Positions 1 through 27,974 are shown, counted from the stretch's first letter. The stretch: 64,000 nt of DNA from an uncultured Chloroflexia bacterium (GCA_963695415.1 CAVOGL010000005.1:8175-72174), one strand, 5' to 3'. Made by a program: numbers and translations. Notes: generated from the letters alone by a model not told the origin.

Positions 1-770
1 GCAAACCTCACCCTCTTCCCGCGGCCCTTTGCGGTCCACAATGCTTGGAGCATCGTTGCCGGGGTAGGAACTGTAGATAAATAGATACCATCATCCGCTA
101 GCGAGTCTTTGCAGGCAGAAAACGAACACTTGCCTACGGTGTCAAAAATAATGTCATATACCATGCCATTTTCGGTAAAATCCTCCTGAGTGTAATCAAT
201 CACCGGATCGGCTCCCAAAGATTTGACCCATTCTAAATTCGCGGTACTGCATACCCCGGTCACCTCTGCCCCAAAGTACCTGGCAAGCTGTACCGCCGCA
301 GCGCCAACCGATCCAGAAGCGCCATAGATCAGCACGGTTTGTCCACTCTGAATATTGCCTTTATCTCTCAGAAAAGGTAGTGCGGTTAATGCCCCATTTG
401 GAATGCTGGCTGCCTCTTGATAATTTATGTTGGCCGGCTTAATCGCCAGCGCCCCGTTTTCAGGCATGCATTTGTATTCAGCATACGCGCCAAAGTTGTC
501 TATGCCGAACACCTGGTCACCCGGCTTGAAGCGGGTCACGACGCTGCCGATAGCTTCGATCTCTCCGGCAAACTCTTGTCCCAGGATGGGGTTTCTAGGT
601 CTCAGAAGACCGTTAAAACCTGGGGAAGCTCTCATATCTGGGTCTTCTTTTACGACAGTCGTCGCAAAAATTTTAATCAGCACCTCATTCGTTTTTGGGG
701 TGGGTTCTTCCACGTCATGAAGATGCAAAACCTCAGGCGGACCAAATTTTGTGTAAACAATTGCTTTCAT
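1..770 (-). CDS. Zinc-type alcohol dehydrogenase / NADPH:quinone oxidoreductase family protein; C-terminus lies beyond the left edge
   Basis: Not in the ORF track because it runs off the window. Minus-strand ATG at 768-770 gives [34 protein letters not shown]..., later [19 protein letters not shown] (Rossmann GxGxxG). Plus-strand ORFs 417-815 and 427-720 are antisense shadows. Confidence 0.8.
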
Positions 771-1501: not shown

Positions 1502-2221
1502 TCAAGCAACCTTATCCAGGGCTGGTTTTTGATCCATTACGCCCCTGATCAAAAGCCACAAAGTAAGTGCAAATTCTGAAATAAACCCGAGCGGATAACT
1601 TATGTAGGTTATACCAACGAAGGTTTCTGCGATGAAGGCTGGGAATAGAAAGAACTGAAGGGTACTCGTTAACCAGACCACACAATGAACCATCAGGATT
1701 ACGCCCAAAATCTTGGGAATGAAGCCGGATTTGAAAACCAAATAACCCAGCGGAAAGAGCCATGCGCCAAAGAATATCTGAGCGATTCCCAGGAACCCAT
1801 ATTTGTATATATACAGAGATAACATTGCCAGGGCTTGCTGTTGATTAACCTGGAATACTTTCAAGTAGTCGGCACCGCTCAAAAGCAGTTGGCTGGCAAT
1901 TAGGAAAAGATCACTACCACACCATACCGCGACACCGGTCAGGTTCAATAACAGGAACAGCAAGGCGATGTCCTTATTTACCGGCTTCAACAGCACGAAC
2001 AACGCCCAGGCCGTCAAAACAAAAAACACAGCAGCAACCAGGTCACTCACTATGCCGACACGGAATTGCCAAGCAGATGCCATGATATTCCCGGCAGTTG
2101 TTGCAGCATCTCCCAATACAATAAGATTGGAACGACCCAGCACATCTGCGAAGATGGAAATTATGATGTAAATCAGATACAGGAACCCTGCAATTCTTGC
2201 GGTCTTATTGATTGAATTCAT
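1502..2221 (-). CDS. DUF4386 family membrane protein
   Basis: MNSINKTARIAGFLYLIYIIISIFADVLGRSNLIVLGDAATTAGNIMAS... is a typical DUF4386 N-terminus. AAAGGAGAT RBS upstream. Confidence 0.75.
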   Translation of the reverse strand: MNSINKTARIAGFLYLIYIIISIFADVLGRSNLIVLGDAATTAGNIMASAWQFRVGIVSDLVAAVFFVLTAWALFVLLKPVNKDIALLFLLLNLTGVAVWCGSDLFLIASQLLLSGADYLKVFQVNQQQALAMLSLYIYKYGFLGIAQIFFGAWLFPLGYLVFKSGFIPKILGVILMVHCVVWLTSTLQFFLFPAFIAETFVGITYISYPLGFISEFALTLWLLIRGVMDQKPALDKVA

Positions 2222-2660
2222 TTTTTATCTCCTTTGATATGAATAGCGCATAGCCCGACAAGGCAATGCCCACTAGGTATAAAACACTCTGAACAACATT
2301 CACCTGCCAGCGACCATGCCCAATATACGAGGAAGCTAAAAACGCCATCACTTCGATAAAGCCGATCACAAACACTAACATCCAGAAAGCCCATTTTTGA
2401 CCGGCGACCAGGCTTTTGCGGATTAGCGTCCAGGTCAGCACTGAGATCACTAGCGAGCAAGAGTTGTACAGGATCGTAAAAGCATTGAGCGATGCAATGG
2501 TCTTCGCACCAAGGGCGGCAATTTCAGCTTCTGAAACAGAAGCCACTTGCAAAATTGGGGAGTCCTTTTTGAGAATGATGACATAGCACAATATGATCAA
2601 GGCGAGTATAAAGTTGATGCCACACCATATTGAAAGAACGTTCGCACCTTTTTTTAGCAT
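2205..2660 (-). CDS. Small four-helix membrane protein, unknown family
   Basis: ORF 2205-2678. The ATG at 2660 (MLKKGANVLSIW...) sits 8 nt after AGGAG. Strongly hydrophobic. Confidence 0.6.
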   Translation of the reverse strand: MLKKGANVLSIWCGINFILALIILCYVIILKKDSPILQVASVSEAEIAALGAKTIASLNAFTILYNSCSLVISVLTWTLIRKSLVAGQKWAFWMLVFVIGFIEVMAFLASSYIGHGRWQVNVVQSVLYLVGIALSGYALFISKEIKNEFNQ

Positions 2661-2687
2661 TTTGGCTTCTCCTTTCATTTTCTCTCC

Positions 2688-3396
2688 CTAGCCCAAATCC
2701 ACTTTCGCAGACAGGGAAGCGATCGCAGATGGATTGAACCCTTTCACGATCAGCCATACCGCCAGAACCAATTCTTGTGGCAGCATTGGAGCAATCATAA
2801 GGACTTGTCCCGTACTGAAAAGGCGCGATGAGACCGATACTGACTAACGCACAGGATAGGATGCCCGTTATGCCGAAAATAAGACCCCAGACCGATAACC
2901 AACGAGGAACGAGTCTGGTTTTATAAAATATGACATAATAAAGCGTACACCCGATGGAAAAAGCCAGTAGCGAGCCAACATTACTCACCCAAGCCTTCCC
3001 TGCAAGTAATAATTCTCCAAGGGTTTGGAAATACGAAGGATCCGGAGCCCCAGCTTTTACGAATAGCTGGCTTAAGGTGATGATCGATAGCAGGATACAC
3101 ACAGAAACAAAACGCAACACTCCCTCCGAGATCCTGAAACCAACCGCTCCAAGCGCCAGAACCGGGCTGGAATGCTTTAGCACGGGATACAGCGAAATTG
3201 CAATCCCGGAAGCGCAAGCACCGCCGATGAATAAAAGAAAGGCTCCTGTTCCCACCAGGCCAGCATTTTCAGAAACACTGACCAGATAATTCGTGGAATT
3301 CACAGATCCCAGGAACAGGAAGCTCAGGACATCCACGCTCGTGTAAATGATGAAAAGGATTCCGGCACTTATTGCGAGTTTTCTAAAGTTGTTCAT
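2688..3396 (-). pseudogene. DUF4386-type membrane protein, frameshifted paralog of 4667-5401
   Basis: ORF 2524-3396 matches its paralog up to ...VSIGLIAPF and then becomes nonsense (SPYDCSNAATRIGSGG...). The adjacent frame gives GQVLMIAPMLPQELVLAVWLIVKGFNPSAIASLSAKVDLG with its stop at 2688-2690, aligning to LMAPLAIQEMVFAAWMILKGFNQ of the paralog. The shift lies near 2805-2825. Confidence 0.8.
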
Positions 3397-3432
3397 TTAA
3401 TATCTCCTTTTTCTAATTCGTTTGGTGGATTC

Positions 3433-4092
3433 TTAAGCGGTTTTGCCTGGATTGCTGCGCAACAGCACGATCCCCAGCCAAACGAACCAGATGACCTGGC
3501 TCAAGGCAAAAACTCCGACCAGGTCGATCAACCCCGGGAGAATGGTGATGATGCCCACCGCGCCAACCAACAAGCCGAGGATATTCAAGCTCTTGGGAAG
3601 CCCGCCCGTTCGAAGAGCGGCCAGGCTGACCAGCAGCGTCCAAAGTCCGCCCAGGATTTCTCCATTGCCGTTGCCCAACCCACTCGCCACGGTCTCGAAC
3701 CCCAACCAGGTCAAGGCAGCCTGGACCGGGTCTTTGGCATACAATGCAACAGCAGGGGCGATCCCGGCATTGGCGACCATGCCGCTGGCGATCAGCGAGC
3801 CAGCCCAGATGATCCCGATCACGGTTGCCACCTGCATGATCGCCGGTGCACCGGACTTTATGCGGTCGTATAACGCAAGCGAAAGGACGATCAGAAAAAC
3901 ACCAAAGAACACGTACATGAGCAGGTTGGTCGCAAATGTGACCATCTGCATTTCGACCAGCAGGGCAACCTTTTGGACCGGGTCAGTGATGCTGGGGTAG
4001 TCCAGAACTACAAGGAAGATGGTCATTCCGATCAGGTAGGCGGCTGCCAGGTACAAAGCGGCGAAACCGCCGAATTTTTGAAAATTTTTCAT
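3433..4092 (-). CDS. DUF4386-like polytopic membrane protein
   Basis: 219-aa ORF, MKNFQKFGGFAALYLAAAYLIGMTIFLVV..., six hydrophobic segments. AAAGGAGAT RBS. Confidence 0.6.
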   Translation of the reverse strand: MKNFQKFGGFAALYLAAAYLIGMTIFLVVLDYPSITDPVQKVALLVEMQMVTFATNLLMYVFFGVFLIVLSLALYDRIKSGAPAIMQVATVIGIIWAGSLIASGMVANAGIAPAVALYAKDPVQAALTWLGFETVASGLGNGNGEILGGLWTLLVSLAALRTGGLPKSLNILGLLVGAVGIITILPGLIDLVGVFALSQVIWFVWLGIVLLRSNPGKTA

Positions 4093-4120
4093 TATTTATC
4101 TCCTTTGATTGCTGAATAGG

Positions 4121-4555
4121 TCAGGCTTCGATGTTGCGCCACTGCCATGCAAACCAGATGATCAGCAGTAGACAGAGGGTCTCGACAACGGCGATGAACA
4201 GGTAGTGGGGAAATGACGCCATACCAACCCAGATATAGGCAATGGTGATAATACTCACCACGATATTGACCCAGCGATTGATGCCGTAATTCAATACACG
4301 GGACAGGATGATCATGGCAATGGCGAGATTGCCCATGATCGCGGCACCAAGCATCAGTTGAGGGATAGGGGTACCGGTGCTGACTGAGGTTTTCGCCACT
4401 TCATCTAACGCCCCAGGGATGAACAGCGAAAGGATATCTGCCTTCAACATATTTATCACGACTACGATCCATAATGTTGAGAGCAGGGCTTTCGCATCAA
4501 TTTTTCTTGTTGTCTTCCAGTTTGTCCCACCGGGTATTGCTTTGGTTGTATTCAT
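4121..4555 (-). CDS. DUF6326-like small membrane protein
   Basis: Start MNTTKAIPGG at 4555 after AAGGAG. LSTLWIVVVINMLKADILSLF resembles the DUF6326 signature. Confidence 0.6.
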   Translation of the reverse strand: MNTTKAIPGGTNWKTTRKIDAKALLSTLWIVVVINMLKADILSLFIPGALDEVAKTSVSTGTPIPQLMLGAAIMGNLAIAMIILSRVLNYGINRWVNIVVSIITIAYIWVGMASFPHYLFIAVVETLCLLLIIWFAWQWRNIEA

Positions 4556-4666
4556 TTCATTCTCCTTGTTGTTATTAATTTTGTCGCAGACAAGCCGCAA
4601 GTGTTTGTTTATGATTCGATCGGGGAAAGGGAGTGTCTTCAGACTTCCTCTCCCCTATATGCTGAT

Positions 4667-5401
4667 TTAAGCTGCGCTCAAAAGTTCATTTGTTTTTGTT
4701 TTAGCTGTCATGACAGCTATTTTCTGTTGGTTGAAACCCTTCAAGATCATCCAGGCTGCAAAGACCATTTCCTGGATGGCAAGCGGGGCCATTAAGAACC
4801 CCAGACCCGAGCTTAGAGATAGAACCTGCTGCGAGCCAAAAATGCCTTCTAAGTGGGCAATGAAGTACAACACTGCACCAACCAAACCCCAGCCAGACAG
4901 CCAGCGGGGAACCAGTCTGGTTTGATAGAAGAGAACATAGATCATCACCGCACCGATACTGAAAACCAAACCCAGTATCAGAGTGGACCAATCAGTTGTC
5001 GCAGTGAGCACGGAACCAAGTGCTTGACGGACGGATGCATCTGCTGCTCCGGTCATCCCATCGATCTGGCTGACAGTCAACATAAGGAACATAGCCAACA
5101 CCGTGATCAAATAACACACCATTTCTAATACCCCCCTGAACAGAACTGCTCCTAACGCCAGGACCTCATTGTGCTTTTTAAAGATCGGGTATAAAAGCAC
5201 CGGAATCATCGCCAGAGGAAATCCCATTACCAGGATAAGAAGTGTTCCGAGGATCCATTGGGTTTCATTTGCAGATACATTGAGTGGGTATGTCACTCCG
5301 GCTTTGATTGGGGCAGTCACAACCATGCTCAGGATGCCTGAGACTGTTCCAACGATGAAAAGAATTCCAACAGTCACGGCGGTTTTTCTGTATGTAATCA
5401 T
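4667..5401 (-). CDS. DUF4386-type membrane protein (intact paralog of 2688-3396)
   Basis: 244-aa ORF. Shares YYVIFYKTRLVPRWLSVWG / YVLFYQTRLVPRWLSGWG and the C-terminal WMILKGFN motif with the frameshifted copy. AAAGGAGAA RBS. Confidence 0.75.
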   Translation of the reverse strand: MITYRKTAVTVGILFIVGTVSGILSMVVTAPIKAGVTYPLNVSANETQWILGTLLILVMGFPLAMIPVLLYPIFKKHNEVLALGAVLFRGVLEMVCYLITVLAMFLMLTVSQIDGMTGAADASVRQALGSVLTATTDWSTLILGLVFSIGAVMIYVLFYQTRLVPRWLSGWGLVGAVLYFIAHLEGIFGSQQVLSLSSGLGFLMAPLAIQEMVFAAWMILKGFNQQKIAVMTAKTKTNELLSAA

Positions 5402-6009: not shown

Positions 6010-8710
6010 TTAGACCAAACCCAACTCATGGGCACGCACGACCGCTTCAATCCGGCTTTGAACTTGCAGCTTGTCAAAAATTTTGCGGTTATGCCCTTTG
6101 ATTGTGTCCAGTGCCAGGAAAAGCCGCTCGCCGATCTCTCGATTCGAGAGTCCCTGGGCAATCAGCTTTAGGATTTCTAATTCGCGTTTACTCAATGGTT
6201 CAATCAGTAACTCACCATCCCGGTGTCCTACCAGAGTGGCAAAAGATGGATCAGGTTTACCTGCGTTTTTTCCAGAGCTGACCACATGGACCGGTCGCTT
6301 CTCAGCTTCAAAGGCTGCCAGCAACCTGGATACATAGCTTTGCATAATCCCCCGGGAAGCAGCTTCTAGCAATAGCTCAGCCATCAAGGAACCTTCGTCC
6401 ACAAATAGGCGGATATGACCGCCTGTCTCGCCGAGTGTCAGCGCTTCGACCAGCACTTGCACTGCCTTGTCTTTCGCACCTTGTGCAAAGAGAACAACAG
6501 ATTGCACAGCTAACACCAGGAGCAGCCTTCCCGGCAATCTATTTGCTTCCGCTTGCTGGCGCTGTGTCTCCACCAAAGCCAGCGCTTCGAATGGATGACC
6601 CAGGGCGATGAGAACACGCGCCTGCATGAGCGGCATGTCAAATGTCCGTACCAATTGTGCGGCATCATCCACATTATTCTGCCGAAGCTGGATTCTTGCC
6701 CGGGTGTAGAAGATATCCGGCAGGCGATAAGTGTAATTCTTTAGACGCGAGGTTTGTTCCGCCTGTAATATCTTGCCCATCGCACCGGTCACATCTCCCT
6801 GGGCTAGTTTCAGACGGGCAAGGAATACGTCACTCAATATTAACCTGTCGATGACTTGGTCAAACTGCTGTGATAATTTTAAGCTCAGTTCGCCATAATA
6901 TTCGGCGGCGGTCAAATCGTTCCACTCATAATAGATCCGTGCCAGACCAAGGTAGGCGACAGGGGCATTATATGGAGAATAATCCTCCATCATTGGCAGT
7001 ACGCGCTGGTAGGTCTCAGCTGCCAGGTGAAGTTGATTTTCAGCTTCCTGGATCTGCCCCAAACGCATGGAAGCTAATGAGGCGTTGATAATATCCCCGG
7101 CAGCCTGGGCGAGAGAATGGGCTTCGGTATACGCCCGTCTGGCCTCAGTCAGGTCATTCTGAATGTAATGAGCAAATCCCAGCGACCGGGTTGCCATGGA
7201 CCGTTCCGACAAGTTATCGGGAGGCAGATACTCCAGGGCGCGGCGCCCCTGGACCAGGATGGTTTCAATCTGGGCTTGCAGCTGCGCCAGGTTAGCTCTG
7301 GCGGCGGCAATTTTACCGATCAGGTCCCGGTTTCCATCGTCCTGGCTGGCACCCGGCAGGGCTTCCGAAGACAAAGCTGCTTCAGTCGACCGGAGTTTCT
7401 CTTCCACGCCCTTCGGTTGACCCATGATCAACAACATAGCAGCCTGCATCCACCACAAGGCAGGTCTCGCGTCCAGCACGGTCTTTGGCAGCGACTCCAG
7501 CCAGTCCAGAATAGCCGTGGCTGTGCCGCGCAGGTGTAGGGGCATCTCCGTGCTTCCCATCAGGCGCCCGGCGCGCTCAACGTCATTAGCCGCAGCCGCT
7601 TGCTGAAAAGCTTCAAGCATCAGGTGATTGTTTTCATACCATTGGCTGGCAAGCAGTTGAAGTTCAGCAATTTCCCCAGGAGATAAACTTTGACCCAACC
7701 GTTTGCGGAGCAAATCCCTAAATAAATGGTGATAGCGGTACCAGTGCCGTTCATTGTCCTGTGGAATAGTGAAAAGGTTTGCACGTTGGAGGTATTCCAG
7801 GGTTGCCTGACCGGGAACATCCGGATCGGACAGAATGGCATCACAAAGAGGTCCACAAATGCGTTCGAGGAAGGATGTGCGCAGCAGAAAGGTCTGAATG
7901 CTGGCGGATTGCTGTCCCAGGACTTCTTCGACCAGATAGTCCAACACGAAATGATGGCTGCCGGTAAAAGATTGAATAAAACTGGTGGTGTCTTGATGAC
8001 CCTGCATGGAAAGCGCAGCCAGTTGCAAACCGACGATCCAGCCCTCGGTACGGGCTTCCAGCGCGGCGACATCTGCATCAGAGAGATCCAGCTCCATCAC
8101 GCGGTTAAGGAATTCGGCGGTTTCGGCTGGGGTAAAGCGCAAATCGGCGGCGCGCAGCTCGGTACACTGACCCCGGGCGCGCAGGCGTGCCAGAGGCAGT
8201 TCTGGATCTTCGCCGCGTGACGATGAGCAGGTGCATCTGCTGCGGCTGGTGTTCGATAAGGTAAGTCAGGGATCGATCGACCGGCTGGGAATCGATCGAG
8301 TGGTAGTCATCCAGGACGAGAAGAAAAATCTCAGAGACGGTGGAAATTTCGTTGATCAGGGTGGTCAAAATGGTTTCGATCTGCAGTGGTTGAGGGGATT
8401 GGAGCGCAGCCAGTAATCCCTCACCAATTCCCGCCTGGATCGTCTGCAATGCTTTTACGAGGTAAGAGATGAACCGCGCAGAATCGTTATCTCCTTCATC
8501 CAACGACAACCATGCAACTGGCATCCCGCAAATGGAGGTCCATTCGCTGACCAGGGTGGTCTTGCCAAACCCGGCGGGGGCGGAAACGAGAGACAGTCTG
8601 CAACCTGCCGCCAGCCCTTCGTTCAATCGCTCAACCAGGCGCGGACGCGGGACAACTTTCGGACGAGGTGGGGGGATAAACAGTTTTGTGGCTAGAAAAG
8701 GAGCAGACAT
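6010..8710 (-). pseudogene. MalT/LuxR-family ATP-dependent transcriptional regulator (STAND NTPase + TPR-like + LuxR HTH), split by a 1-nt frameshift
   Basis: ORF 8105-8710 carries Walker A (SAPAGFGKTTL) and LLVLDDYH, then ends in nonsense after LLIVT. Shifting one base at 8211-8217 (minus-strand acgcg[g]cgaagat) gives TREDPELPLARLRARGQCTELRAADLRFTPAETAEFLN, which runs into ORF 6010-8142. That ORF ends with a LuxR HTH (LSKRELEILKLIAQGLSNREIGERLFLALDTIKGHNRKIFDKL). Confidence 0.85.
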
Positions 8711-9167
8711 AGGGCAATTATTATTTTTAGATGCGAAAAGCCCAACTCGCGATCAGCGGATCGCGGAAAAACTTTCAGACAATCTTAAATATTCACCTGG
8801 TCATTATGATTATTGCAAAGCACTATCTTTATTGTGATCGAGTTATATCACAATTACCAGGGATTTGTATTCGACCTGGATTGCACGTACTGCCCTGGGC
8901 GATACCGCTCTCCCTCGGGGGATGTGGAGGCAGTGGCAGCCCTGCTGTAGCATCGAAAGCATATTTCCTTGATCGGGTATAGAAATGGGGAAGGAGGTGG
9001 AGCGACATTTTGCGTCCTGAAATGTGGACTTTTTAAGTTCCTGATTTGTGGACATTTTATTTTCTTCTTGACACTATCATCAGTACTATGGCCTCCTCCG
9101 ACTTCTCATCCGTCTTCTCTCTGAACTTCACCTTTCGGCTTATAACGTCAATTACACTGGGACTGGT

Positions 9168-9626
9168 CCAGCGACCAGGTGAGACCTCTCCTGTTCCATC
9201 GCCTACTTTCTCAACATCCTGCACTCCCTACACCGGAGGAGCCTGCCCAGAGCAAAGCGAAGGGTTCTTCGCGGCTGCTTCTCAGGGTCTTCACCGCTTC
9301 TGTTGCCTTCGCCATTCGTGACAGACCCGGCTCTCTCTTGCTCCCCTTTCGGGGCTAACATGTCGGTGCTGCCGTGCTTGCATAGCAAGACGCTTGCACA
9401 GCAAGACGCTTGCATAGCAAGACAATCACTTTATGTTACGGGCTGCTGTTTTACTCTCCTTTCTCAGGAGGTTACAACGCTTCGACATAGCCAGTCACCC
9501 GGCTGCATCGGTTGCCTCCTGAACGGTGTGAAGGATCACTGGCAGCCTGACCCTTACCAGGACTGGACTTCCTCCAGCAAGCAAACGGTGACTTTTCCAG
9601 GACACACCATGCGGGGTTGGGCGGCT
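9168..9626 (-). repeat. Copy 1 of a ~455-nt structured ORF-less repeat (candidate ncRNA or expanded attC)
   Basis: Roughly nine-tenths identical by eye to 16785-17238, with unrelated flanks. Starts with GCCCAAC 15 nt after the GNAT stop codon. Dense helices on the minus strand, and G-C/G-U exchanges between the copies. Confidence 0.6.
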
Positions 9627-9637
9627 GTTTGATATTT

Positions 9638-10222
9638 TCACTCCGATAACGAGTGCATTTGTAGCCATTCTTTCCTAAGCAGCGAAAACTGAATTTGATC
9701 ATTATATTGCCCATCCCGACAGTAATACTCGCGTAAAATACCTTCTCTTTGAAACCCTAGTTTTATCAGAACTCGCTGAGACCGATCATTTTCTATGTGT
9801 GTGGTAGCTTCAATACGATTCAAACCCATTTCAAAATATCCAAACCGAAACAATGCCCCCAATGCTTCCGGCATTATTCCTTGTCCCCAATAGTTGGGCC
9901 ATAAGTCATACCCTACTTCCGCCCGATGGTGTTGCTTATCCCATCGACAGTAACCGCATGTGCCAATCAATTCACCCTTTGTTTTGTATTCAATCCCCCA
10001 CCATTTGAAGTCGGGCATCTTTTCCGGGGTTTGCAGAGGGCTTAACATTTCTTTGGCCTGTTCTAGGCTCTTGAGAGGTTCTTCGTCACGCATGTAATAG
10101 GTAACTTGCGAGTCACCCCATTCTTTGAAAATGAATTCCGCATCATCCATTCTCAAAGCTCGAAGTACCAATCGCTTTGTTTCCATGCGCGGGTATGCCT
10201 GGTTTATTTCTTCAGTACTCAC
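9638..10222 (-). CDS. GNAT family N-acetyltransferase (RimJ/RimL-like)
   Basis: 194 aa. RLVLRALRMDDAEFIFKEW ... WGQGIMPEALGALFRFGYFEMGLNRIEATTHIENDRSQRVLIKLGFQREG is the acetyl-CoA-binding core. GTG start 5 nt after AAGGAG. Confidence 0.85.
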   Translation of the reverse strand: MSTEEINQAYPRMETKRLVLRALRMDDAEFIFKEWGDSQVTYYMRDEEPLKSLEQAKEMLSPLQTPEKMPDFKWWGIEYKTKGELIGTCGYCRWDKQHHRAEVGYDLWPNYWGQGIMPEALGALFRFGYFEMGLNRIEATTHIENDRSQRVLIKLGFQREGILREYYCRDGQYNDQIQFSLLRKEWLQMHSLSE

Positions 10223-10324
10223 TACTACTCCTTCGATTGAACCTCGGTAATATTACATGTGTTGATTTTCGAGTCTTTTCGTGATGCTGTAGCATACTCA
10301 CACGCGCTAACAGTTTTTTAAGAG

Positions 10325-10381
10325 GACCAACGTCGCAGGTCAGGCGAGCTGTAAAGCGTCGCCTGCATCTGCTGGTTAGGC
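10325..10381 (-). other. Candidate attC recombination site (57 nt)
   Basis: Minus strand: GCCTAAC-cagcagatgCAGGCGAcgctttacagcTCGCCTGacctgcgac-GTTGGTC. The R'' overlaps the TAG stop of 10381-11358. The fold has a 7-bp central stem, a 4-bp L-box-like stem, unpaired spacers and single bulged bases. Confidence 0.7.
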
Positions 10382-11358
10382 TATTCTCTCTTGGTCGGAG
10401 CCGATCCGATCCTTCGAACTCGAATCGAGGCTCCCCCGTTGCAACTGAAGGTCTCAATCGCGCCCACATTCCCCTCGACCACCCAATAATTGATATCAGC
10501 AATGCCGAGATTATCGGGGTCGTTGATGTCGTAGATCAGCTTCTGCCAGACGTTCTGAGGGGTGGTCTGTCCCGGACCCGGCTGTTCCGTGTTCAACTGT
10601 TCGATCGAAAAGCCGTGTTTGCCCGAAACGGTGACGTGATGCGGATTGCGGTACGCTCCCACGCGCGCAAATCGCGAGGCATGATGGGCGAAGACAAACT
10701 CCAGGCCGTTGATGTTGGAGGCCACCACTATGTTGTCTGCATCGGTATGCTCGTTTACCAGGATGCCGGTATGGAAGCCGGTGACGATTACATTGCGCAG
10801 GATGGTCAGCGCGGCGTTATTACATGCCGGAGTTATGAGACCACGGGTGCCGTGGGTGGGGCGGGATGCCTGCACGTTGTAAACGCCCGTGTTGACAAAC
10901 ACGTTCTCGATCCGGCACTGCGACGCCCACTCAAGATCGATGCCGCCGATCACGGGGTCGTCGCTCGTTCTCACGTCCAGGTCTTTCAGCACAACATGAA
11001 CTCTGGAGAAATGGCCCGGTCCGAGACTCGGGGGCTCTGCACTGATGACCGCCGGGCCTGATGTGTACAAGCACTTGACGATGCTGTTGTGGCTGGGCAG
11101 TTCCGTACTGCCGATCGTCCCGAAAACCGTTGTCGGCTGGCTCTCACCGACAATCTCTAGCGCGATCCAATTAGGCTTTGGAATGGCGGGGATGATGAAC
11201 CGCCCGAGGTAGACGCCAGCTGGCACATAAATCCGACCGCCGCCGGCTTCGATCACCGCTTTCAGACAAGCCGAAAATGCCGCAGTGTTGTCCGTCTTGT
11301 CGTCGCCGACAGCCCCGTAGTTCTGAACGTTGAACACCCGCCTTACACTTTCATTCAT
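10381..11358 (-). CDS. Pectate-lyase-superfamily / right-handed beta-helix protein (GH28/GH55-related N-terminus)
   Basis: FNVQNYGAVGDDKTDNTAAFSACLKAVIEAGGGRIYVPAGVY is the Pectate_lyase_3-type N-terminal motif. The gene is visibly more GC-rich than its neighbours. Confidence 0.7.
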   Translation of the reverse strand: MNESVRRVFNVQNYGAVGDDKTDNTAAFSACLKAVIEAGGGRIYVPAGVYLGRFIIPAIPKPNWIALEIVGESQPTTVFGTIGSTELPSHNSIVKCLYTSGPAVISAEPPSLGPGHFSRVHVVLKDLDVRTSDDPVIGGIDLEWASQCRIENVFVNTGVYNVQASRPTHGTRGLITPACNNAALTILRNVIVTGFHTGILVNEHTDADNIVVASNINGLEFVFAHHASRFARVGAYRNPHHVTVSGKHGFSIEQLNTEQPGPGQTTPQNVWQKLIYDINDPDNLGIADINYWVVEGNVGAIETFSCNGGASIRVRRIGSAPTKRE

Positions 11359-11375
11359 CGTCTGGTTTCCTCCTT

Positions 11376-11639
11376 GCCTAACGGATGAGCTCAGCCGCAG
11401 CGCCGGGTGGGCGGAACCGCCACACTGAACAAGTATACCGACAAAGCCAAAGGGCCGCGATACAACGAGCGCCGAAGGCGCTGTCGGCTGCAGCGGGGGT
11501 TAGCCGCCATTTCCCACCAGCACGGCCCGCCGCTGCCCCCAATGCGTGCCATCCCGCCTTCCTTATCTCACCATGCGGCAGCCTGCACGTCCAACGGTAT
11601 TTGCCGCTTGGTTAGCAATCAGAAGGTCGCCTGTTAAGC
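11376..11639 (-). other. Composite attC-like junction (probably two sites around an ORF-less mini-cassette)
   Basis: GCTTAAC (11633-11639) overlaps the TAA stop and GTTGGAC lies at 11589-11595. A second site runs GGCTAAC (11499-11505)-ccc-GCTGCAGC ... GCTGCGGC-...-GTTAGGC (11376-11382), 18 nt before the next ATG. Confidence 0.45.
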
Positions 11640-12711: not shown

Positions 12712-12739
12712 TCGCAAGTCTCCTGAGAACATTGATGGC

Positions 12740-12881
12740 GGCTAACTCGCGCTTCAGCGGATTGCATAACAGCTTATATACGATCCGCATAAACACCTAT
12801 TCATTTAGGGTATTATACGGCACTCTATTTTTATCGGGACAGAATTCCATCCTAATTTCTAACCTGGAAGGACTGTCAGGC
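12740..12881 (-). repeat. Long attC-like repeat, family 1, copy B
   Basis: Near-identical to 19819-19959. Minus strand: GCCTGACAG ... CTGTTATGC then GTTAGCC, 29 nt before the ATG at 12711. Internal hairpin CCGTATAA...TTATGCGG. Confidence 0.55.
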
Positions 12882-13167
12882 TGCCAGCCCCACAAACGAA
12901 TTTCCAACCAAAATATTGGGACCTGAAATATCTGCGTTATGCAAAAGTTTATATAATTCATACGCAATCTGTCAACTCGTTCGTGGTCTTGGTTCGGAGT
13001 CACTCCAGCCATATTTAATCCATTATTGAACTTTTGACATTTCGTGCCTCTGTTTCGGGTTATTTTTTTTTAATAAAGTCCGCCTTCATCTCATAATTGA
13101 CCAAGCAACCTCAGACCTATTTCAAGATTGGTTCTCATTTTCGTGAAGCAAAACCTAACAATTTATA

Positions 13168-16079: not shown

Positions 16080-16595
16080 TTATAGTTCCACAGTATGTTC
16101 CGCTGTAACCATAAACCCGTGTTTCTGATATAACTGGTAGGCTTTCATTTCCGGTTCAGTTCCCAGGGTCAGTGTTTTGCAGCCATTCTCTAATGCAATG
16201 TTCTTGATCCTGTTTAACATTGCTTTACCTATTCCCCGATCTTGATATTCCGGTCGGATGCACATACAGCTTATGTGATAATTGCTCTCAAGATATGGCA
16301 ATACAAAAGCAAACCCGATGAGTTCATCCTTGATTTTATATGCAAACGAAGCTGGACAGCTAAGGATTTCAGGAAAACCAAGCTCCTCATCGTAATATCT
16401 TCTTCGCTCCCCTTCATTTTGTAGCTTGAAGAACTTTGCATCTCCCTCATCAAATCCATTGATATAGCATTCAAAAAGGGTTTCTGCGGCAATATTTCCG
16501 ATTGGTTCAATCACAATACCACTCATTGAAATATTTTCACGATATTGTTTCTGATCCAATTTGCAGGTCATCTCAACATATACAAACTTTGTCAT
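16080..16595 (-). CDS. GNAT family N-acetyltransferase
   Basis: 171 aa. CMCIRPEYQDRGIGKAMLNRIKNIALENGCKTLTLGTEPEMKAYQLYQKHGF is the acetyl-CoA-binding motif. AGGAGACAGA-ATG RBS. Confidence 0.85.
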   Translation of the reverse strand: MTKFVYVEMTCKLDQKQYRENISMSGIVIEPIGNIAAETLFECYINGFDEGDAKFFKLQNEGERRRYYDEELGFPEILSCPASFAYKIKDELIGFAFVLPYLESNYHISCMCIRPEYQDRGIGKAMLNRIKNIALENGCKTLTLGTEPEMKAYQLYQKHGFMVTAEHTVEL

Positions 16596-16784
16596 TCTGT
16601 CTCCTGTGGTATTAGCTATGCTATTCCTTTACCAATATCTAGAGTTCCAAGTTTAATCGAGAAGACTGTCCGTTCAGCAGCCTAACATTTAATTTGATTG
16701 CGGTTCGATTAATTATATATACCTGTGTATATTCACACAGGATTCCGCCTTGCCGCTCATATCTGCCGTTACGCTGGCTCTGTA

Positions 16785-17238
16785 CCAGCGACCAGGTGAG
16801 ACCTCCCCTGTTCCATTGCCTGCTTTCACAACATCCTGCACTCCCTACACCGGAGAAGCCTGCCCAGAGCAAAGCGAAGGGTTCCTCATGGCTGCTTTTC
16901 AGGGTCTTCACCGCTTCTTTTGCCTTCGCCATGCGTGACAGACCCGGCTCTCTCTTGCTCCCCTTTCGGGGCTAACATGTCGGTGCTGCCGTGCTTGCGT
17001 GCAAGCGCTGGCAAGACGCTTGCACAGCAAGACAATCACTTTATGTTACGGGCTGCTGTTTTGCTCTCCTTTCTCAGGAGGTTACAACGCTTCGACATAG
17101 CCAGTCACCCGGCTGCATCGGTTGCCTCCTGAACGGTGTGTGAAAGATCCCTGGCAGCCTGGCCCTTACCAGGACTGAACTTGAACCAGCAAGCAGACGA
17201 TGACTTTTCCAGGACACACCATGCGGGGTTGGGCGGCT
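16785..17238 (-). repeat. Copy 2 of the ~455-nt structured ORF-less repeat
   Basis: Matches 9168-9626. GCCCAAC at 17228-17234 lies 20 nt after the stop at 17255. A GTTAGGC core lies downstream at 16680-16686. Confidence 0.6.
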
Positions 17239-19790: not shown

Positions 19791-19818
19791 GTCTGAATAA
19801 AACCTTCTATCTCACTGC

Positions 19819-19959
19819 GCCCAACGCGTGATTTAGCGGATTGCATAACAGCTTATAAACGGTCCGTATAAATACCTATTCATTTTGGATATTATACGGC
19901 ACTCTATTTTTATCGGGAAAGAATTCCTCCTAATTTCTAACATGGAAGGACTGTTAGGC
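19819..19959 (-). repeat. Long attC-like repeat, family 1, copy A (occupies the attI position)
   Basis: Minus strand: GCCTAACAG ... CCGTATAA..TTATACGG ... CTGTTATGC then GTTGGGC, 29 nt before the ATG at 19790. The R'' end lies 15 nt from the intI stub. Confidence 0.55.
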
Positions 19960-19974
19960 TGCCAAACCCCCAAA

Positions 19975-20213: not shown

Positions 20214-21023
20214 TTGCACATCCCGCCTGCGGACCACTACCAGGGCTTTGTTTTCGACCTGGATGGCACGATCTACCTGGGCGACAGCGCCCTCCCGGGG
20301 GCAGTGCAGGCAGTGGCATCCTTACGGCAGGGCGGCAAGCGCGTCGTCTTCATCACCAACAAGCCGCTCTCCACACGACAGGATTATGCACGAAAACTCA
20401 CCCGATTGGGCATCCCCACCAACCAGGATGAGATCATCACCTCTGCATTTGTACTGGGCAGTCATTTAGCTAAGAAGCTGCCAGAGCTGAATTATTACCT
20501 GGTTGGGGAAGAAAATCTGGCGATGGAGCTGCGCGGGTACGGGTTGAATATCCTGCCTGAGTTCAGCGACCAGGACCCAAAGCATGTTCTGGAAGTGAAA
20601 GAGGTCGATGCTCTCATTGTTGCTTTCGACCGCACCCTGGATTACCGCAAGCTGAACACCGCCTACCAGGCGCTGGTCGGAGGCGCGCGGTTCTTCGCCA
20701 CCAACGCCGACAAGACCTGCCCCATGCCCGGCGGGGCAATCCCGGACGCCGGAGCTACGATCACCGCGCTGGAACACCTGACAGGGCGGCAGGTTGAGAT
20801 TTTGGGGGGAAAACCATCCCCTCTGATGATGCAGGTGGCGGCGGAAACCCTGCAGCTGTCCCCGGACCGCTGTCTGCTGGTGGGTGACCGTCTGGAGACA
20901 GACATGCGCATGGGTCAGAATGCCGGTTTTGCTACCGCGTTGGTGCTTACCGGAGTGACGCGCAGGGACGACCTGGAGGGATTTCACCCCACCGCCCAGT
21001 TACATTTTCTCCAACCTGTTTGA
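20214..21023 (+). CDS. HAD-IIA family hydrolase (NagD-like sugar phosphatase)
   Basis: FVFDLDGTIYLG, VFITNK, GKPSP, LLVGDRLETDMRMGQNAG. The last 14 codons look shifted, because the alternative frame gives DFTPPPSYIFSNLFELISS ending at 21039. Confidence 0.8.
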   Translation: MHIPPADHYQGFVFDLDGTIYLGDSALPGAVQAVASLRQGGKRVVFITNKPLSTRQDYARKLTRLGIPTNQDEIITSAFVLGSHLAKKLPELNYYLVGEENLAMELRGYGLNILPEFSDQDPKHVLEVKEVDALIVAFDRTLDYRKLNTAYQALVGGARFFATNADKTCPMPGGAIPDAGATITALEHLTGRQVEILGGKPSPLMMQVAAETLQLSPDRCLLVGDRLETDMRMGQNAGFATALVLTGVTRRDDLEGFHPTAQLHFLQPV

Positions 21024-25236: not shown

Positions 25237-26418
25237 TCACGGACGCGTCAGAAGCGGGAGATAAACCGGCTCCCAGGCGGCTTCGAAAGCGCCGATATCA
25301 CAGGCGCTGGAGTTAAAAGATGGTCGGGGAAAGCCTCTCTGGTCCACATTGGGACAGGAGATGGCATTTCCCCCGACGCCTGCAGCATTGAAGGCCGGGC
25401 TTCCAGCCATTAGTGCATGGGTCAGTGTATCTCCACCGTTATCGGCGAGTGGTCCGAGTTTTGGATCAGCTACCTGGAGACCGGCGCCGCAGGAAGAATC
25501 ACTGCTGATACTGTGGTGACCTGTCGCCAAAGCGACATTACAGGCAGTATTCCCTGCCCCCGCTGTGAGGATTGAATTATAAATCTCCAGGTTCCAGTTT
25601 ACGGATGTGTACACCGCCCAACCCGAAGTGGATTCGATGATATTGTTATTGGTGATCGTGGAGTAATGGATTTTTAAGTCACCGTTATTCCATTGAGAAA
25701 TCCCACCACCGTTATATAACGCAGTATTTCCACTGACGGTTACATTGACTAATGTAGCCGTATTTCCGTTGGTAAATCCCCCGCCGAACTCAGCAGTATT
25801 CCCTGAAATCAAAACCCGTTCCAGATGTACACTGCCAAATTGAGACTGGTAAATCCCACCTCCGTCACCACCAGTCTGGTTGCCGGTGAACTGCGAGTCC
25901 GCAGCGGTGAGGTTCCCAATGGTAAAAATCCCGCCACCCAGAACAAACCCATCCCCCAGATTATCGCGTACAGCAACATGGTCCAGATCCAAACTGATTT
26001 GTTCCCCTAAAACCTGGATCCCCGCGCCAAGATTGTTTTCAGGCAGTTTGCCGTGGCGGATGGTTAAGTCGGATACTGTGACCTTATATTCAGCATCGTT
26101 AAGCAAATCCAGAACACGGTCAATGCCTTCTTCAGTCGATGCCCCAGCCTGGATGATCGTTTGATCGATACCCTCACCTGCCAGGTTCAGGGACACAAGG
26201 ATGTCAAGGTCACCGGTGGCATTTTCATCCTCGTCCATGCCATCAATGGTGAGTTCGTAGACACCAACAGGCACCTGGATGGTGTAGGTGTTTGAAGGAT
26301 CTGCATTCGCCTTGCTGATCGCCCCGCGGAGGCTGCAGTCATTTTCGGAGGATGTACAAGCGCTTTTTGCTGGATCATCAACTGTGGTATCAACCTGTAT
26401 GATTAAAGTCTGCAGCAA
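25237..26418 (-). CDS. CSLREA-domain / choice-of-anchor-Q beta-helix protein (signal peptide apparently out of frame)
   Basis: ACTSSENDCSLRGAISKANADPSNTYTIQVPVGVYEL is the CSLREA motif; C-terminal NVDQRGFPRP...CDIGAFE. A signal-peptide-like LRLVSFLLLLTIILSSFSNSIAAD sits upstream in another frame (about 26420-26480). Confidence 0.7.
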   Translation of the reverse strand: MLQTLIIQVDTTVDDPAKSACTSSENDCSLRGAISKANADPSNTYTIQVPVGVYELTIDGMDEDENATGDLDILVSLNLAGEGIDQTIIQAGASTEEGIDRVLDLLNDAEYKVTVSDLTIRHGKLPENNLGAGIQVLGEQISLDLDHVAVRDNLGDGFVLGGGIFTIGNLTAADSQFTGNQTGGDGGGIYQSQFGSVHLERVLISGNTAEFGGGFTNGNTATLVNVTVSGNTALYNGGGISQWNNGDLKIHYSTITNNNIIESTSGWAVYTSVNWNLEIYNSILTAGAGNTACNVALATGHHSISSDSSCGAGLQVADPKLGPLADNGGDTLTHALMAGSPAFNAAGVGGNAISCPNVDQRGFPRPSFNSSACDIGAFEAAWEPVYLPLLTRP

Positions 26419-26552: not shown

Positions 26553-27827
26553 TCAATTACTTTTATTCTTAACTAAAGGAACGAAGATCCTCTCTCCAAC
26601 ATATTCGAATGCTCCGATGTCACACACAGCCACCTGATCCTGATCACCATCAAATGGACGAGGAAAACCTCGTTGATCCATACCTGGACACGCAATCGCA
26701 TTACCCCCATCCCCTGCCGCATCTATCGCCGGACTGCCGACTAACAAGGCGTGCGTGAGGGTAGCTCCACCGTTATCTTTTAGAATCCCAAGTTGGGGAT
26801 CTTCAACCAGGATCGTACTATCGCAAGTCGTATCACTGCCAATATTGTGATGACCAGCATCGATGAGTGATGTGCATGCCTTTTTCCCTTCTTCAGCCGT
26901 GATGATCGAGTTATAGATTTCTATTACCAGCGGGTCATGAATTGCCCACCCATTCGAATTAGCTGTGTTGACGTTATTTGTTATCGTGGAGTAGTGAATT
27001 TTAAGATCCGCATCATTCCACTGGCTGATCCCGCCCCCATTCGCAGTCGCAGTATTTCCACTGATGGTGGTGTTGATCAGAATTGCCAGATTGTTGTTTG
27101 CGAAACCACCGCCATATTCTGCCATATTTTCAGCAATCAGGCACCCATCCAGCAGGATATAATCAGAACCTCCCTGGTAAATCCCACCTCCTTCACCGGA
27201 TGTTACATTTCCGGTGAACTGGCAGTCTCTAGCTTCCAAATCACCGTTTGCGTACAACCCACCACCGTACGAATAACCTTCCCCCAGGTTGTCACGCAAT
27301 GCAACCCGGATGAGAGTCAGAGCACTGTTTGAATTGTATTGACGGATTCCGGCTCCAGTTTTACTATCTCCAATCTTCCCATGACGAACAGTCAAATCGG
27401 TGAATTCAACAGAGATCGTTGCGTCTCCTGAAATTTCGATTACGCGATCTATCCCAACGGATGCGGATGCTCCTGCCTGGATGATGGTCTGGTCCATGCC
27501 TTCGCCTTCCAGGTTGACGGTGGCGAGGATGTCGAGGTCTCCCGTAGCATTGTTGTCTTCCTCGGAACCAGCCAGGCTCAGGGTATAAATCCCGGCTGGG
27601 ATATGGATGGTGTAGGTGTTCCCAGCATCAGCGTTTGCCTTGCTGATCGCCCCGCGCAGGCTGCAGTCATTCGCTGCAGATGTACAAGCCTGGTATGCAG
27701 GATCGTTCGAGTCACTGGTGGTGTCAATAGTGATGGATGTATCAATAGCTCGAACATCGTTGACGACTAACAGAACACCAACAAGTAAGATAACTACAAA
27801 ACTGATTCGAACAGAAGTGCTTCTCAT
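26553..27827 (-). CDS. CSLREA-domain / choice-of-anchor-Q beta-helix protein, secreted
   Basis: Start MRSTSVRISFVVILLVGVLLVV at 27827 after AAGGAG. ACTSAANDCSLRGAISKANADAGNTYTIHIPAGIYTL. Paralog of 25237-26418. Confidence 0.8.
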   Translation of the reverse strand: MRSTSVRISFVVILLVGVLLVVNDVRAIDTSITIDTTSDSNDPAYQACTSAANDCSLRGAISKANADAGNTYTIHIPAGIYTLSLAGSEEDNNATGDLDILATVNLEGEGMDQTIIQAGASASVGIDRVIEISGDATISVEFTDLTVRHGKIGDSKTGAGIRQYNSNSALTLIRVALRDNLGEGYSYGGGLYANGDLEARDCQFTGNVTSGEGGGIYQGGSDYILLDGCLIAENMAEYGGGFANNNLAILINTTISGNTATANGGGISQWNDADLKIHYSTITNNVNTANSNGWAIHDPLVIEIYNSIITAEEGKKACTSLIDAGHHNIGSDTTCDSTILVEDPQLGILKDNGGATLTHALLVGSPAIDAAGDGGNAIACPGMDQRGFPRPFDGDQDQVAVCDIGAFEYVGERIFVPLVKNKSN

Positions 27828-27974
27828 GGGTAGCTCCTTTTTGATCGCTTTAAAGGAAACTGAATACGGGTATGATGCTGGATCGGACACTACCAATAAA
27901 TTATTCCCCAGCTAAAATTATACTGTAATTTTTCGATGAAATTTTCAACCAAACCGAATAACCAAAAAGAGATT

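Follow-up and report, generated by a model that had tools for sequence, protein, structure and literature searches.

Two 3'-truncated group II introns at attC sites of a Chloroflexia integron cassette array

Two copies of a repeat of about 455 nt lie on the minus strand of a 64,000-nt stretch of DNA from an uncultured Chloroflexia bacterium (GCA_963695415.1, CAVOGL010000005.1:8175-72174), hereafter the window, in which positions are counted from the first letter. An earlier note, made from the sequence alone, had singled out this repeat, which has no open reading frame (ORF), as a possible novel cassette-borne noncoding RNA, a new class of very long attC site or a derivative of an attC-targeting mobile element. 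We find that both copies, c1 and c2, are domains 1 and 2 (D1, D2) of a group II intron with an exact 5' junction; they are neither a new RNA class nor a giant attC. The intron belongs to a lineage whose homing site is the attC of integron cassettes, and the integron that heads the minus-strand array of the window has lost its integrase. The two copies are very probably non-functional remnants in interrupted attC sites of this decapitated integron, and on that account an apparent orphan structured RNA would be mobile-element debris, to be annotated as two group II intron fragments, interrupted attCs and a decapitated integron.

Group II intron identity of the two copies

A repeat search places c1 at 9168-9627 and c2 at 16785-17238 as three collinear blocks of 88-98% identity, and BLAST aligns them at 90.6% identity across 501 nt. 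Since their flanks are unrelated at both the DNA and the protein level, a segmental duplication taking in flanking genes, which the earlier note had set against its own proposal, is ruled out as the source of the two copies; the note's picture of two segments about nine-tenths identical between unlike flanks holds. The fainter likeness that it saw further left in both copies is real and corresponds to D2 (71% identity, compared with 92.6% in D1). It was also right that no ORF is conserved between the copies, and neither contains a remnant of a reverse transcriptase (RT).

In an Rfam scan of the whole window the single match above gathering score was RF02003 (group-II-D1D4-4), on the minus strand in c1; the equivalent match in c2 stays slightly below that score (Table 1). 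RF02003 is a curated model of group II intron domain 1, and in c1 its start lies 27 nt past GUGUG (9607-9603), the canonical 5' end of group II introns, which recurs in c2 at 17219-17215. Two hallmarks of group II introns, a GUGYG end and the D1 fold, are present in both copies, and the D1 pairs have covariation support. A significant match to a known family had been named beforehand as an argument against novelty, and RF02003 (50.5 bits, E 3e-8) is such a match. Together with the collinearity of the copies with full-length group II introns it disposes of the headline options of a novel noncoding RNA and a new class of very long attC. An IS1111-attC element or an IS110-type bridge/seek RNA, also proposed, finds no backing either: there is no ORF for a DEDD transposase, and no Rfam match except RF02003 in or around the copies.

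We collected relatives from representative genomes and metagenome contigs with a gapped pattern that combines two conserved motifs of D1, discarding chance pattern matches unrelated to the intron (4 of 14 genome matches and about 13 of 80 metagenome matches). This left some 75 true relatives, 10 in representative genomes and about 65 among the 80 metagenome contigs. Most come from metagenome-assembled genomes of Chloroflexota, and eight of the ten genome relatives are annotated to that phylum (Anaerolineae, Herpetosiphon and others). About 22 are full length, with a class-C-like RT/maturase and domains D5/D6, and provide the RT-bearing copies that the earlier note had suggested looking for; about 13 others share a common ORF deletion and keep D5/D6. 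The full-length element of locus L006, whose coordinates are cited below as ref, begins with GUGUG and comprises a ribozyme of about 510 nt, a 433-aa YADD RT/maturase and canonical D5/D6 (RF00029). Its intron-encoded protein (IEP) matches TIGR04416 at 432 bits and has no endonuclease (En) domain; its best relatives among solved structures are the group IIC RTs 7uim, 6ar1 and 5hhj (188-224 bits; 168 for IIB and 167 for IIA). Starting 15 nt before the 5' splice site, c1 aligns to this element as far as ref 520 (window 9079) and c2 as far as ref 478 (window 16738).

The consensus structure was derived from a non-redundant alignment of 29 sequences (A2; 27 relatives plus c1 and c2) and comprises 132 pairs; at 39 of these both partners have changed in a compensatory way. 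An independent count gave 98.2% of cells paired and 39 double-change pairs, compared with 19.1 ± 2.2 in shuffled alignments (0 of 500 reached the observed number), and control structures with the partners slid by one to three columns gave at most 12. The description of the repeat as highly structured therefore holds at the level of the family; it fails for the single sequence, which has a minimum free energy (MFE) that is not unusually stable (z -1.18; 16 of 100 shuffles fold equally well). The D3 motif given in Table 1 presumably resembles D3 of O. iheyensis. A first assignment that had the copies reach into D4a was overturned by the consensus fold: D1 measures about 330-425 nt, so the copies end in D2/D3.

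Two of the helices drawn in the earlier note, CGAUGCAGCC/GGCUAUGUCG (helix 6) and the hairpin CCCC-GAAA-GGGG (helix 12), have covariation support. The hairpin UCAGGAGG/CCUCCUGA clashes with a covarying CCUCC-UGAGAAA-GGAGA hairpin in which 5/5 pairs are compensatory, and the pseudoknot between its loop and AGUCACC is unsupported, the loop being a GNRA tetraloop (GUGA, GCGA or GUAA). GGGUCU/AGACCC shows no conservation in the relatives, and GCGAAG-AACC-CUUCGC sits in an insertion confined to the window copies. The closure of the first 270 nt as a giant hairpin is likewise unsupported; its GCCCAAC...CAUG strand is 5' exon (attC boxes R'' and L''), outside the element. A candidate exon-binding site 1 (EBS1) is the loop CACGC of the relatives and c2, which is complementary to exon GCGUG, a short candidate intron-binding site 1 (IBS1); in locus L004 the loop CCACGC occurs alongside exon GCGUGG. 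The CAUG within CACCGACAUGUUAGCC was considered as an EBS1 or as a mimic of the R' box and rejected: the segment is invariant whatever the exon and is paired in the consensus, and the CACGC loop is the better candidate.

A tblastn search with the L006 IEP gave no match better than E=1 in the window, BLAST queries taken from the D5/D6 regions of L006 and L002 had no match in the 64 kb, and RF00029 gave no match at E<=10 near either copy or at E<=1 window-wide; D5, which in group II introns is a 34-nt catalytic hairpin bearing the AGC triad, reads GAGCCG...GAAAAC...CGGUUC in the relatives. The branch-point A of D6 and the 3' splice site are also absent, homology ending in D3 in c1 and in D2 in c2. 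Both copies therefore lack the RT, D5, D6 and most or all of D3, and the earlier remark that no complete group II intron fits the repeat was correct. The catalytic centre, D5, and the branch-site domain, D6, are gone, as is the RT/maturase, and from this we infer that the copies can neither splice nor move and are decaying remnants.

The state of the remaining helices is in keeping with decay. Broken, that is non-canonical, pairs number 9 of 101 in D1 of c1 and 7 in that of c2 (five common to both, four in c1 only, two in c2 only), compared with 0-4, and mostly 0-1, in the 27 relatives. At sixteen paired sites the copies differ, and about half of these differences disrupt pairing; not one of the 16 is a compensatory change of both partners. 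In c1 the candidate EBS1 loop is mutated from CACGC to CACGA. One option in the earlier note, that the repeat is non-autonomous and derives from a group IIC-type element that targets attC, was close to the truth. However, with their catalytic domains absent the copies are dead fragments, beyond non-autonomous, and they differ in strand and insertion point from the described group IIC-attC introns.

attC sites as the homing target and the integron of the window

Over 25 independent loci share RYYYAAC-N3-4-GCGUG/GUGUG as the intron's 5' flank and first bases, and the target as a whole has the form RYYYAAC-N3-4-GCGUG/intron/CAC...GTTRRRY. Locus L002 contains both an occupied and an empty site. 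The occupied site reads GCCTAAC-AAAGCGTG/intron...CCCTAC/CACTGGAC...GCAAACC-GTTAGCC, and the empty one, 700 nt further, reads GGCTAAC-AAAGCGTG-CAC...CGCAAACC-GTTGGGC, with GCGTG/CAC at the uninterrupted junction; each site stands after one ORF and before the next. In several independent loci the 3' exon is CAC...AACGCAAnCC-GTTRGSC, over 60-115 nt. The layout of flank and 3' exon is that of R''-L''...L'-R', and the target is therefore an attC, with the intron just past L''. The insertion point lies on the cassette-sense strand, 8 nt 3' of R''. Upstream of the intron there is only a 2-4 bp GC...GC mini-hairpin, most of the attC hairpin being in the 3' exon. Of 51 distinct loci, 34 have an open frame of 60 codons or more that runs in the direction of the intron and stops no more than 60 nt short of R'' (median 15.5 nt). 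attC is the homing site of the lineage.

In the repeat that the earlier note likened to a giant attC, R'' and L'' do occur, as parts of the host attC that was interrupted; the 455-nt body is intron D1-D2. The earlier note had placed GCCCAAC shortly after a cassette stop codon in each copy. This is so for c1, which follows a GNAT gene; upstream of c2 there are just ORFs of about 30 aa, none of them convincing as a gene.

The copies do lie at integron cassette junctions, as had been claimed, given the attC sites and the integrase remnants in the window and in a related locus. The remnant in the window, 32 codons of an integron-integrase N-terminus (Table 1), is 47% identical to IntI1 in tblastn (E 1.5e-6) and matches the integron integrase model TIGR02249 (E 6e-7). 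In locus L005 an integron integrase carrying a frameshift is arranged likewise. A HAD hydrolase gene (20214-21023, plus strand) follows the remnant in the window.

The attC sites of the array are heterogeneous. A canonical 71-nt site at about 10312-10382 (GCCTAAC...GTTGGTC, minus strand) has a DNA fold z of -3.05; another site, at about 11365-11505 (GGCTAAC...GTTAGGC), is longer, at about 140 nt. A 160-nt unit occurs twice (12738-12896 and 19817-19974, 88% identity); on the minus strand its end reads ...ATCCGCTGA.GCGCGA-GTTRGSC and runs into the start of intI. A third, shorter copy of this end, at 8740-8760, stands beside a fragment resembling the HAD N-terminus (8850-8894 compared with 20233-20277, 82%). 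The 160-nt units and the HAD-like fragment suggest two or three tandem decapitated integron heads, that is, attI-like regions.

Origin of the two copies and alternative readings

We propose that a class-C-like group II intron, a self-splicing ribozyme and retroelement, would have inserted into the cassette-sense strand of an attC directly past L'', and that a later deletion would have removed everything from D3 (c1) or from the middle of D2 (c2) onward. Any present effect would be passive. The fragment would part R''/L'' from any L'/R' partner, so that the upstream cassette should be locked in place, and any transcript reading through it would gain a long, structured tail at its 3' end.

The identity between c1 and c2 is at the norm of the family (91.7% in D1, 75.3% in D2), and in D1 c1 is equally close to c2 and to the copy of locus L023. 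A recent duplication of one copy is thereby ruled out. The copies share three private insertions, located at 9521-9536, 9373-9425 and 9240-9263 in c1, which places them in one sub-lineage, and the 13 nt of their 5' exons are identical. One insertion consists of a 16-nt hairpin unit that forms three tandem repeats in c1 (TRF: 9376-9423, period 16, 3.0 copies) and is rearranged in c2. No closer public relative of the sub-lineage was found, and searches of plasmid and viral DNA with the element returned nothing or only spurious matches of about 50 nt. Most likely, donors of one sub-lineage homed on two separate occasions, and each of the resulting copies then underwent a deletion of its own.

Deletions are frequent in the family as a whole. 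The common ORF deletion runs from ref 673 to 1899 in about 13 loci from different samples, leaving the first 29 codons of the ORF and D5/D6; this form looks like a propagating non-autonomous, ORF-less intron. The loci named for it are L002, L018, L031, L032, L035, L050, L055, L060, L065, L077 and L083. ORF-less forms of group II intron are said to be rare in bacteria (PMC4424553). In five of these loci (L018, L031, L032, L050 and L077) the 5' junction of an older, truncated D1 remnant is the exact insertion point of a newer ORF-deleted intron that retains D5/D6. This stacking points to repeated homing into one attC, and a remnant that still has its 5' exon apparently preserves the homing site. 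Two further loci, L007 and L080, have lost everything from about intron position 182 into the interior of the attC. Truncation end points fall at ref 240, 248, 262, 282, 300, 328, 384, 478 and 520, and this scatter rules out truncation through an integrase crossover at the internal GTTAGCC. Since the search pattern lies within D1 and finds only copies with a 5' part, the excess of 3' truncations is partly an ascertainment bias.

Several observations weigh against this account or parts of it. The 140-nt attC of L002 has no strong MFE hairpin (z -0.35), and its identification as an attC comes from the order of the R and L boxes and its position between ORFs. An L'/R' partner of the attC of c1 was not identified. 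The class of the IEP was read from solved structures alone, and these omit bacterial classes D-F. The three private insertions and five private broken pairs common to c1 and c2 were seen in no donor among about 90 public loci, from which it follows that an already dead fragment may have been copied. Both copies are cut near one region (D2/D3), a mild coincidence if the deletions were independent. Finally, the evidence spans a 64-kb window, and a trans-acting source of D3-D6 or of an IEP elsewhere in the genome is possible.

It is with these points in mind that one may ask whether the shared D1-D2 is a maintained half-element with D1 as a target-binding scaffold, complemented in trans by the D3-D6 and IEP of a full-length copy or kept by the host to freeze cassettes; to this we assign a slim chance. 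Its host-serving form would make D1-D2 a functional RNA, either a domesticated 3' untranslated region or roadblock for the upstream gene or an attC-disabling device that fixes cassettes. Such a role would fit the same position of c1 and c2 relative to R''/L'' and their identical 5' exons, the far better conservation of D1 than of D2 between them, and a terminator-like hairpin formed by the private insertion of c1 at 9240-9263. However, the contrast between D1 and D2 is the ordinary pattern of the family, and the terminator-like match is at chance level and missing from c2; promoter and terminator scans gave nothing above chance. The copies have 2-9 times as many broken pairs as functional relatives and no compensatory change between them, their truncation points differ, and comparable remnants with varied end points occur in other genomes. 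We regard a maintained function as improbable.

An assembly artefact, in which the real loci hold full-length multi-copy introns that a short-read assembler collapsed or mis-joined, is suggested by the repetitiveness of the family and by the many metagenome contigs that end within the intron. Both copies are nevertheless flanked by unique sequence on either side within one contiguous 64-kb stretch, and they are truncated at different points. Their private decay, in the form of broken pairs and the tandem 16-nt expansion, would not be expected of collapsed active copies, and truncated relatives occur in several unrelated assemblies. There is little to recommend this explanation.

In organelles, split group II introns are frequent, and in vitro D5 can act in trans. 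By analogy, c1 and c2 might be the 5' halves of split or trans-complemented introns that draw D3-D6 and the IEP from elsewhere, for trans-splicing or mobilisation. The exact 5' splice junction is kept, the evidence is confined to the 64-kb window, and trans-splicing forms are listed in PMC4424553. Natural breaks, however, lie in D4, or in D1 and D4, whereas here they lie inside the helices of D2/D3, which they destroy. The candidate EBS1 loop of c1 is mutated and IBS1 already mismatches EBS1; there is no exon to join, because the insertion is intergenic, in an attC; and no D5/D6 lies within the 64 kb. We hold this to be very improbable; if trans-complementation did take place, the element would count as a split, non-autonomous group II intron of bacteria that can spread among attC sites.

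That the element is itself a very long attC, or a noncoding RNA unrelated to known families, has next to no chance of being right in spite of GCCCAAC at its 5' edge and an internal GUUAGCC resembling an R' core, as GCCCAAC...GCAUG is exon shared with uninterrupted attCs, the sequence inside is a homologue of group II D1-D2 that matches Rfam significantly, and the closing helix has no covariation, its partner segment pairing elsewhere in the consensus.

The features of the two fragments and their surroundings are collected in Table 1. Elsewhere in the window, four or five consecutive paralogous DUF4386 genes and a DUF6326 gene (1502-5401, minus strand) lie upstream of a MalT/LuxR-type regulator (6010-8710) that is apparently split in two ORFs. 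Diverged direct repeats at 25846-26376 and 27174-27704 (72-78% identity) fall inside the large, adjacent minus-strand ORFs 25237-26418 and 26553-27896, which are probably tandem paralogues.

Table 1. Features of the intron fragments, their attC sites and the integron (window positions unless A2 columns are given)
Feature	Position	Strand	Remarks
c1 attC R'' core GCCCAAC, GNAT cassette, in 5' exon	9616-9622	-	15 nt after the stop of ORF 9638-10222; RYYYAAC 8 nt before the intron elsewhere
c1 last 5 nt of 5' exon, GCAUG	9608-9612	-	attC L'' box and candidate IBS1; GCGUG in relatives
c1 D1	9183-9607	-	starts GUGUG; A2 columns 17-483
c1 D2	9110-9178	-	A2 columns 488-559
c1 D3, 5' strand only	9079-9096	-	first 18 nt, GGAGGAGGCCAUAGUACU; homology to every relative stops at 9079
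c1 RF02003 match in D1	9431-9580	-	50.5 bits (gathering score 49), E 3.3e-8, full model 1-138
c1 candidate EBS1 hairpin loop	9316-9320	-	CACGA, family CACGC; A2 columns 320-324, terminal loop of helix 16
c1 private D1 insertion	9373-9425	-	16-nt hairpin unit, three in tandem, replacing a 4-bp family hairpin; absent from 27/27 relatives (A2)
c1 private D1 insertion, 24 nt	9240-9263	-	GCGAAG-AACC-CUUCGC hairpin; A2 columns 397-420
c2 attC R'' core GCCCAAC, in 5' exon	17228-17234	-	motif and alignment
c2 D1	16800-17219	-	alignment
c2 D2	16738-16795	-	cut before the closing 3' strand; homology stops at 16738; no D3
c2 RF02003 match in D1	17041-17192	-	48.8 bits, E 9e-8, slightly below gathering score 49
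GTTAGGC, probable R' closing the interrupted attC of c2	16680-16686	-	85 nt before ORF 16080-16595
Repeat blocks c1/c2	9115-9381/16732-16998; 9401-9530/17011-17140; 9526-9629/17138-17241		repeat search
Integron-integrase N-terminus remnant, 32 codons	19979-20074	+	LDQVREILRMKHDAYRTEQAYIDWIKRYIFFH, then stop; divergent from the minus-strand cassette genes
Family D1	A2 columns 17-483		closing helix UCCUG/CAGGA; 101 consensus pairs
Family D2	A2 columns 488-559		helices 18-21; 12/16 pairs compensatory in the family
Family D3	A2 columns ~573-648		motif CAUAGUACC...GGAAGG
Family D4	A2 columns after 648		holds the ORF

Comparison with known attC-targeting introns

Read as non-functional remnants, the copies are themselves of little interest, and what modest interest there is lies in the attC targeting of their lineage. 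Chloroflexota genomes and metagenomes hold a sizeable class-C-like lineage with full-length elements, a propagating ORF-deleted form and many remnants. Group IIC-attC introns, the established comparison, are reportedly the subject of work by Leon & Roy (2009) and Quiroga et al. (2008). Introns of that group (S.ma.I2, N.eu.I1/I2, A.vi.I2) form a IIC clade and occupy the bottom strand of the attC, where they run antisense to the cassettes and are inserted at TTGT/T inside R'' (PMC3001079, PMC7923331). Like them, the present lineage is En-less and class-C-like, has attC as its homing site and sits in cassette arrays; both also occur in attC clusters without an integrase, and truncated copies have been reported for the two alike. 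Unlike them, it uses the top strand, past L'' GCGUG and 8 nt 3' of R''. For the group IIC-attC introns the folded attC is the upstream stem-loop, whereas the present lineage has no substantial upstream hairpin. The hosts differ as well, Chloroflexota chromosomes here and proteobacterial integrons there, and the IEPs of enterobacterial plasmids are less than 60% identical to that of the lineage. As it departs from them in strand, orientation and position, the lineage should not be classed as IIC-attC. A single proteobacterial case, an unusual group IIC intron in an Enterobacter cloacae integron, is said to have been described by Rodriguez-Martinez et al. (2012, J Bacteriol 194:150). PMC7923331 cites a top-strand IIC intron in an integron of that species.

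ORF-less, non-autonomous and dead group II derivatives occur alongside full-length relatives, and fragments are common in bacterial genomes (PMC4424553, PMC7923331). The published integron fragments H.ha.F1/F2 and UHB.F1 (PMC7923331) are 5'-truncated and keep D5/D6, whereas the window copies are 3'-truncated with an intact 5' junction. A 5' truncation fits incomplete reverse transcription; the 3' truncation of the window copies needs a later deletion. The nearest annotated IEP is the ltrA product WP_000558495.1 of a Leptospira plasmid intron (NZ_CP098371.1, L. interrogans; locus L095), at 63% identity. Its intron shares the RF02003 type of D1 and RF00029 D5/D6 with the lineage; unlike the window copies, it is full length, and the absence of a RYYYAAC...GCGUG 5' exon places it outside any attC context. 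It also has no GUGYG 5' end at the expected distance.

The open-access literature yielded no report that brings Chloroflexi, integrons and group II introns together, and, judged from it, the sense-strand, L''-box attC targeting of the lineage is apparently undescribed. Its geometry is opposite to that of the only characterised attC-targeting introns. If confirmed, it would represent a second, independent route by which retroelements came to read attC sites. Such a route bears on how group IIC introns recognise structured DNA and on intron-based models of cassette genesis, and also on cassette expression, because an intron in the sense strand can be spliced from the cassette transcript.

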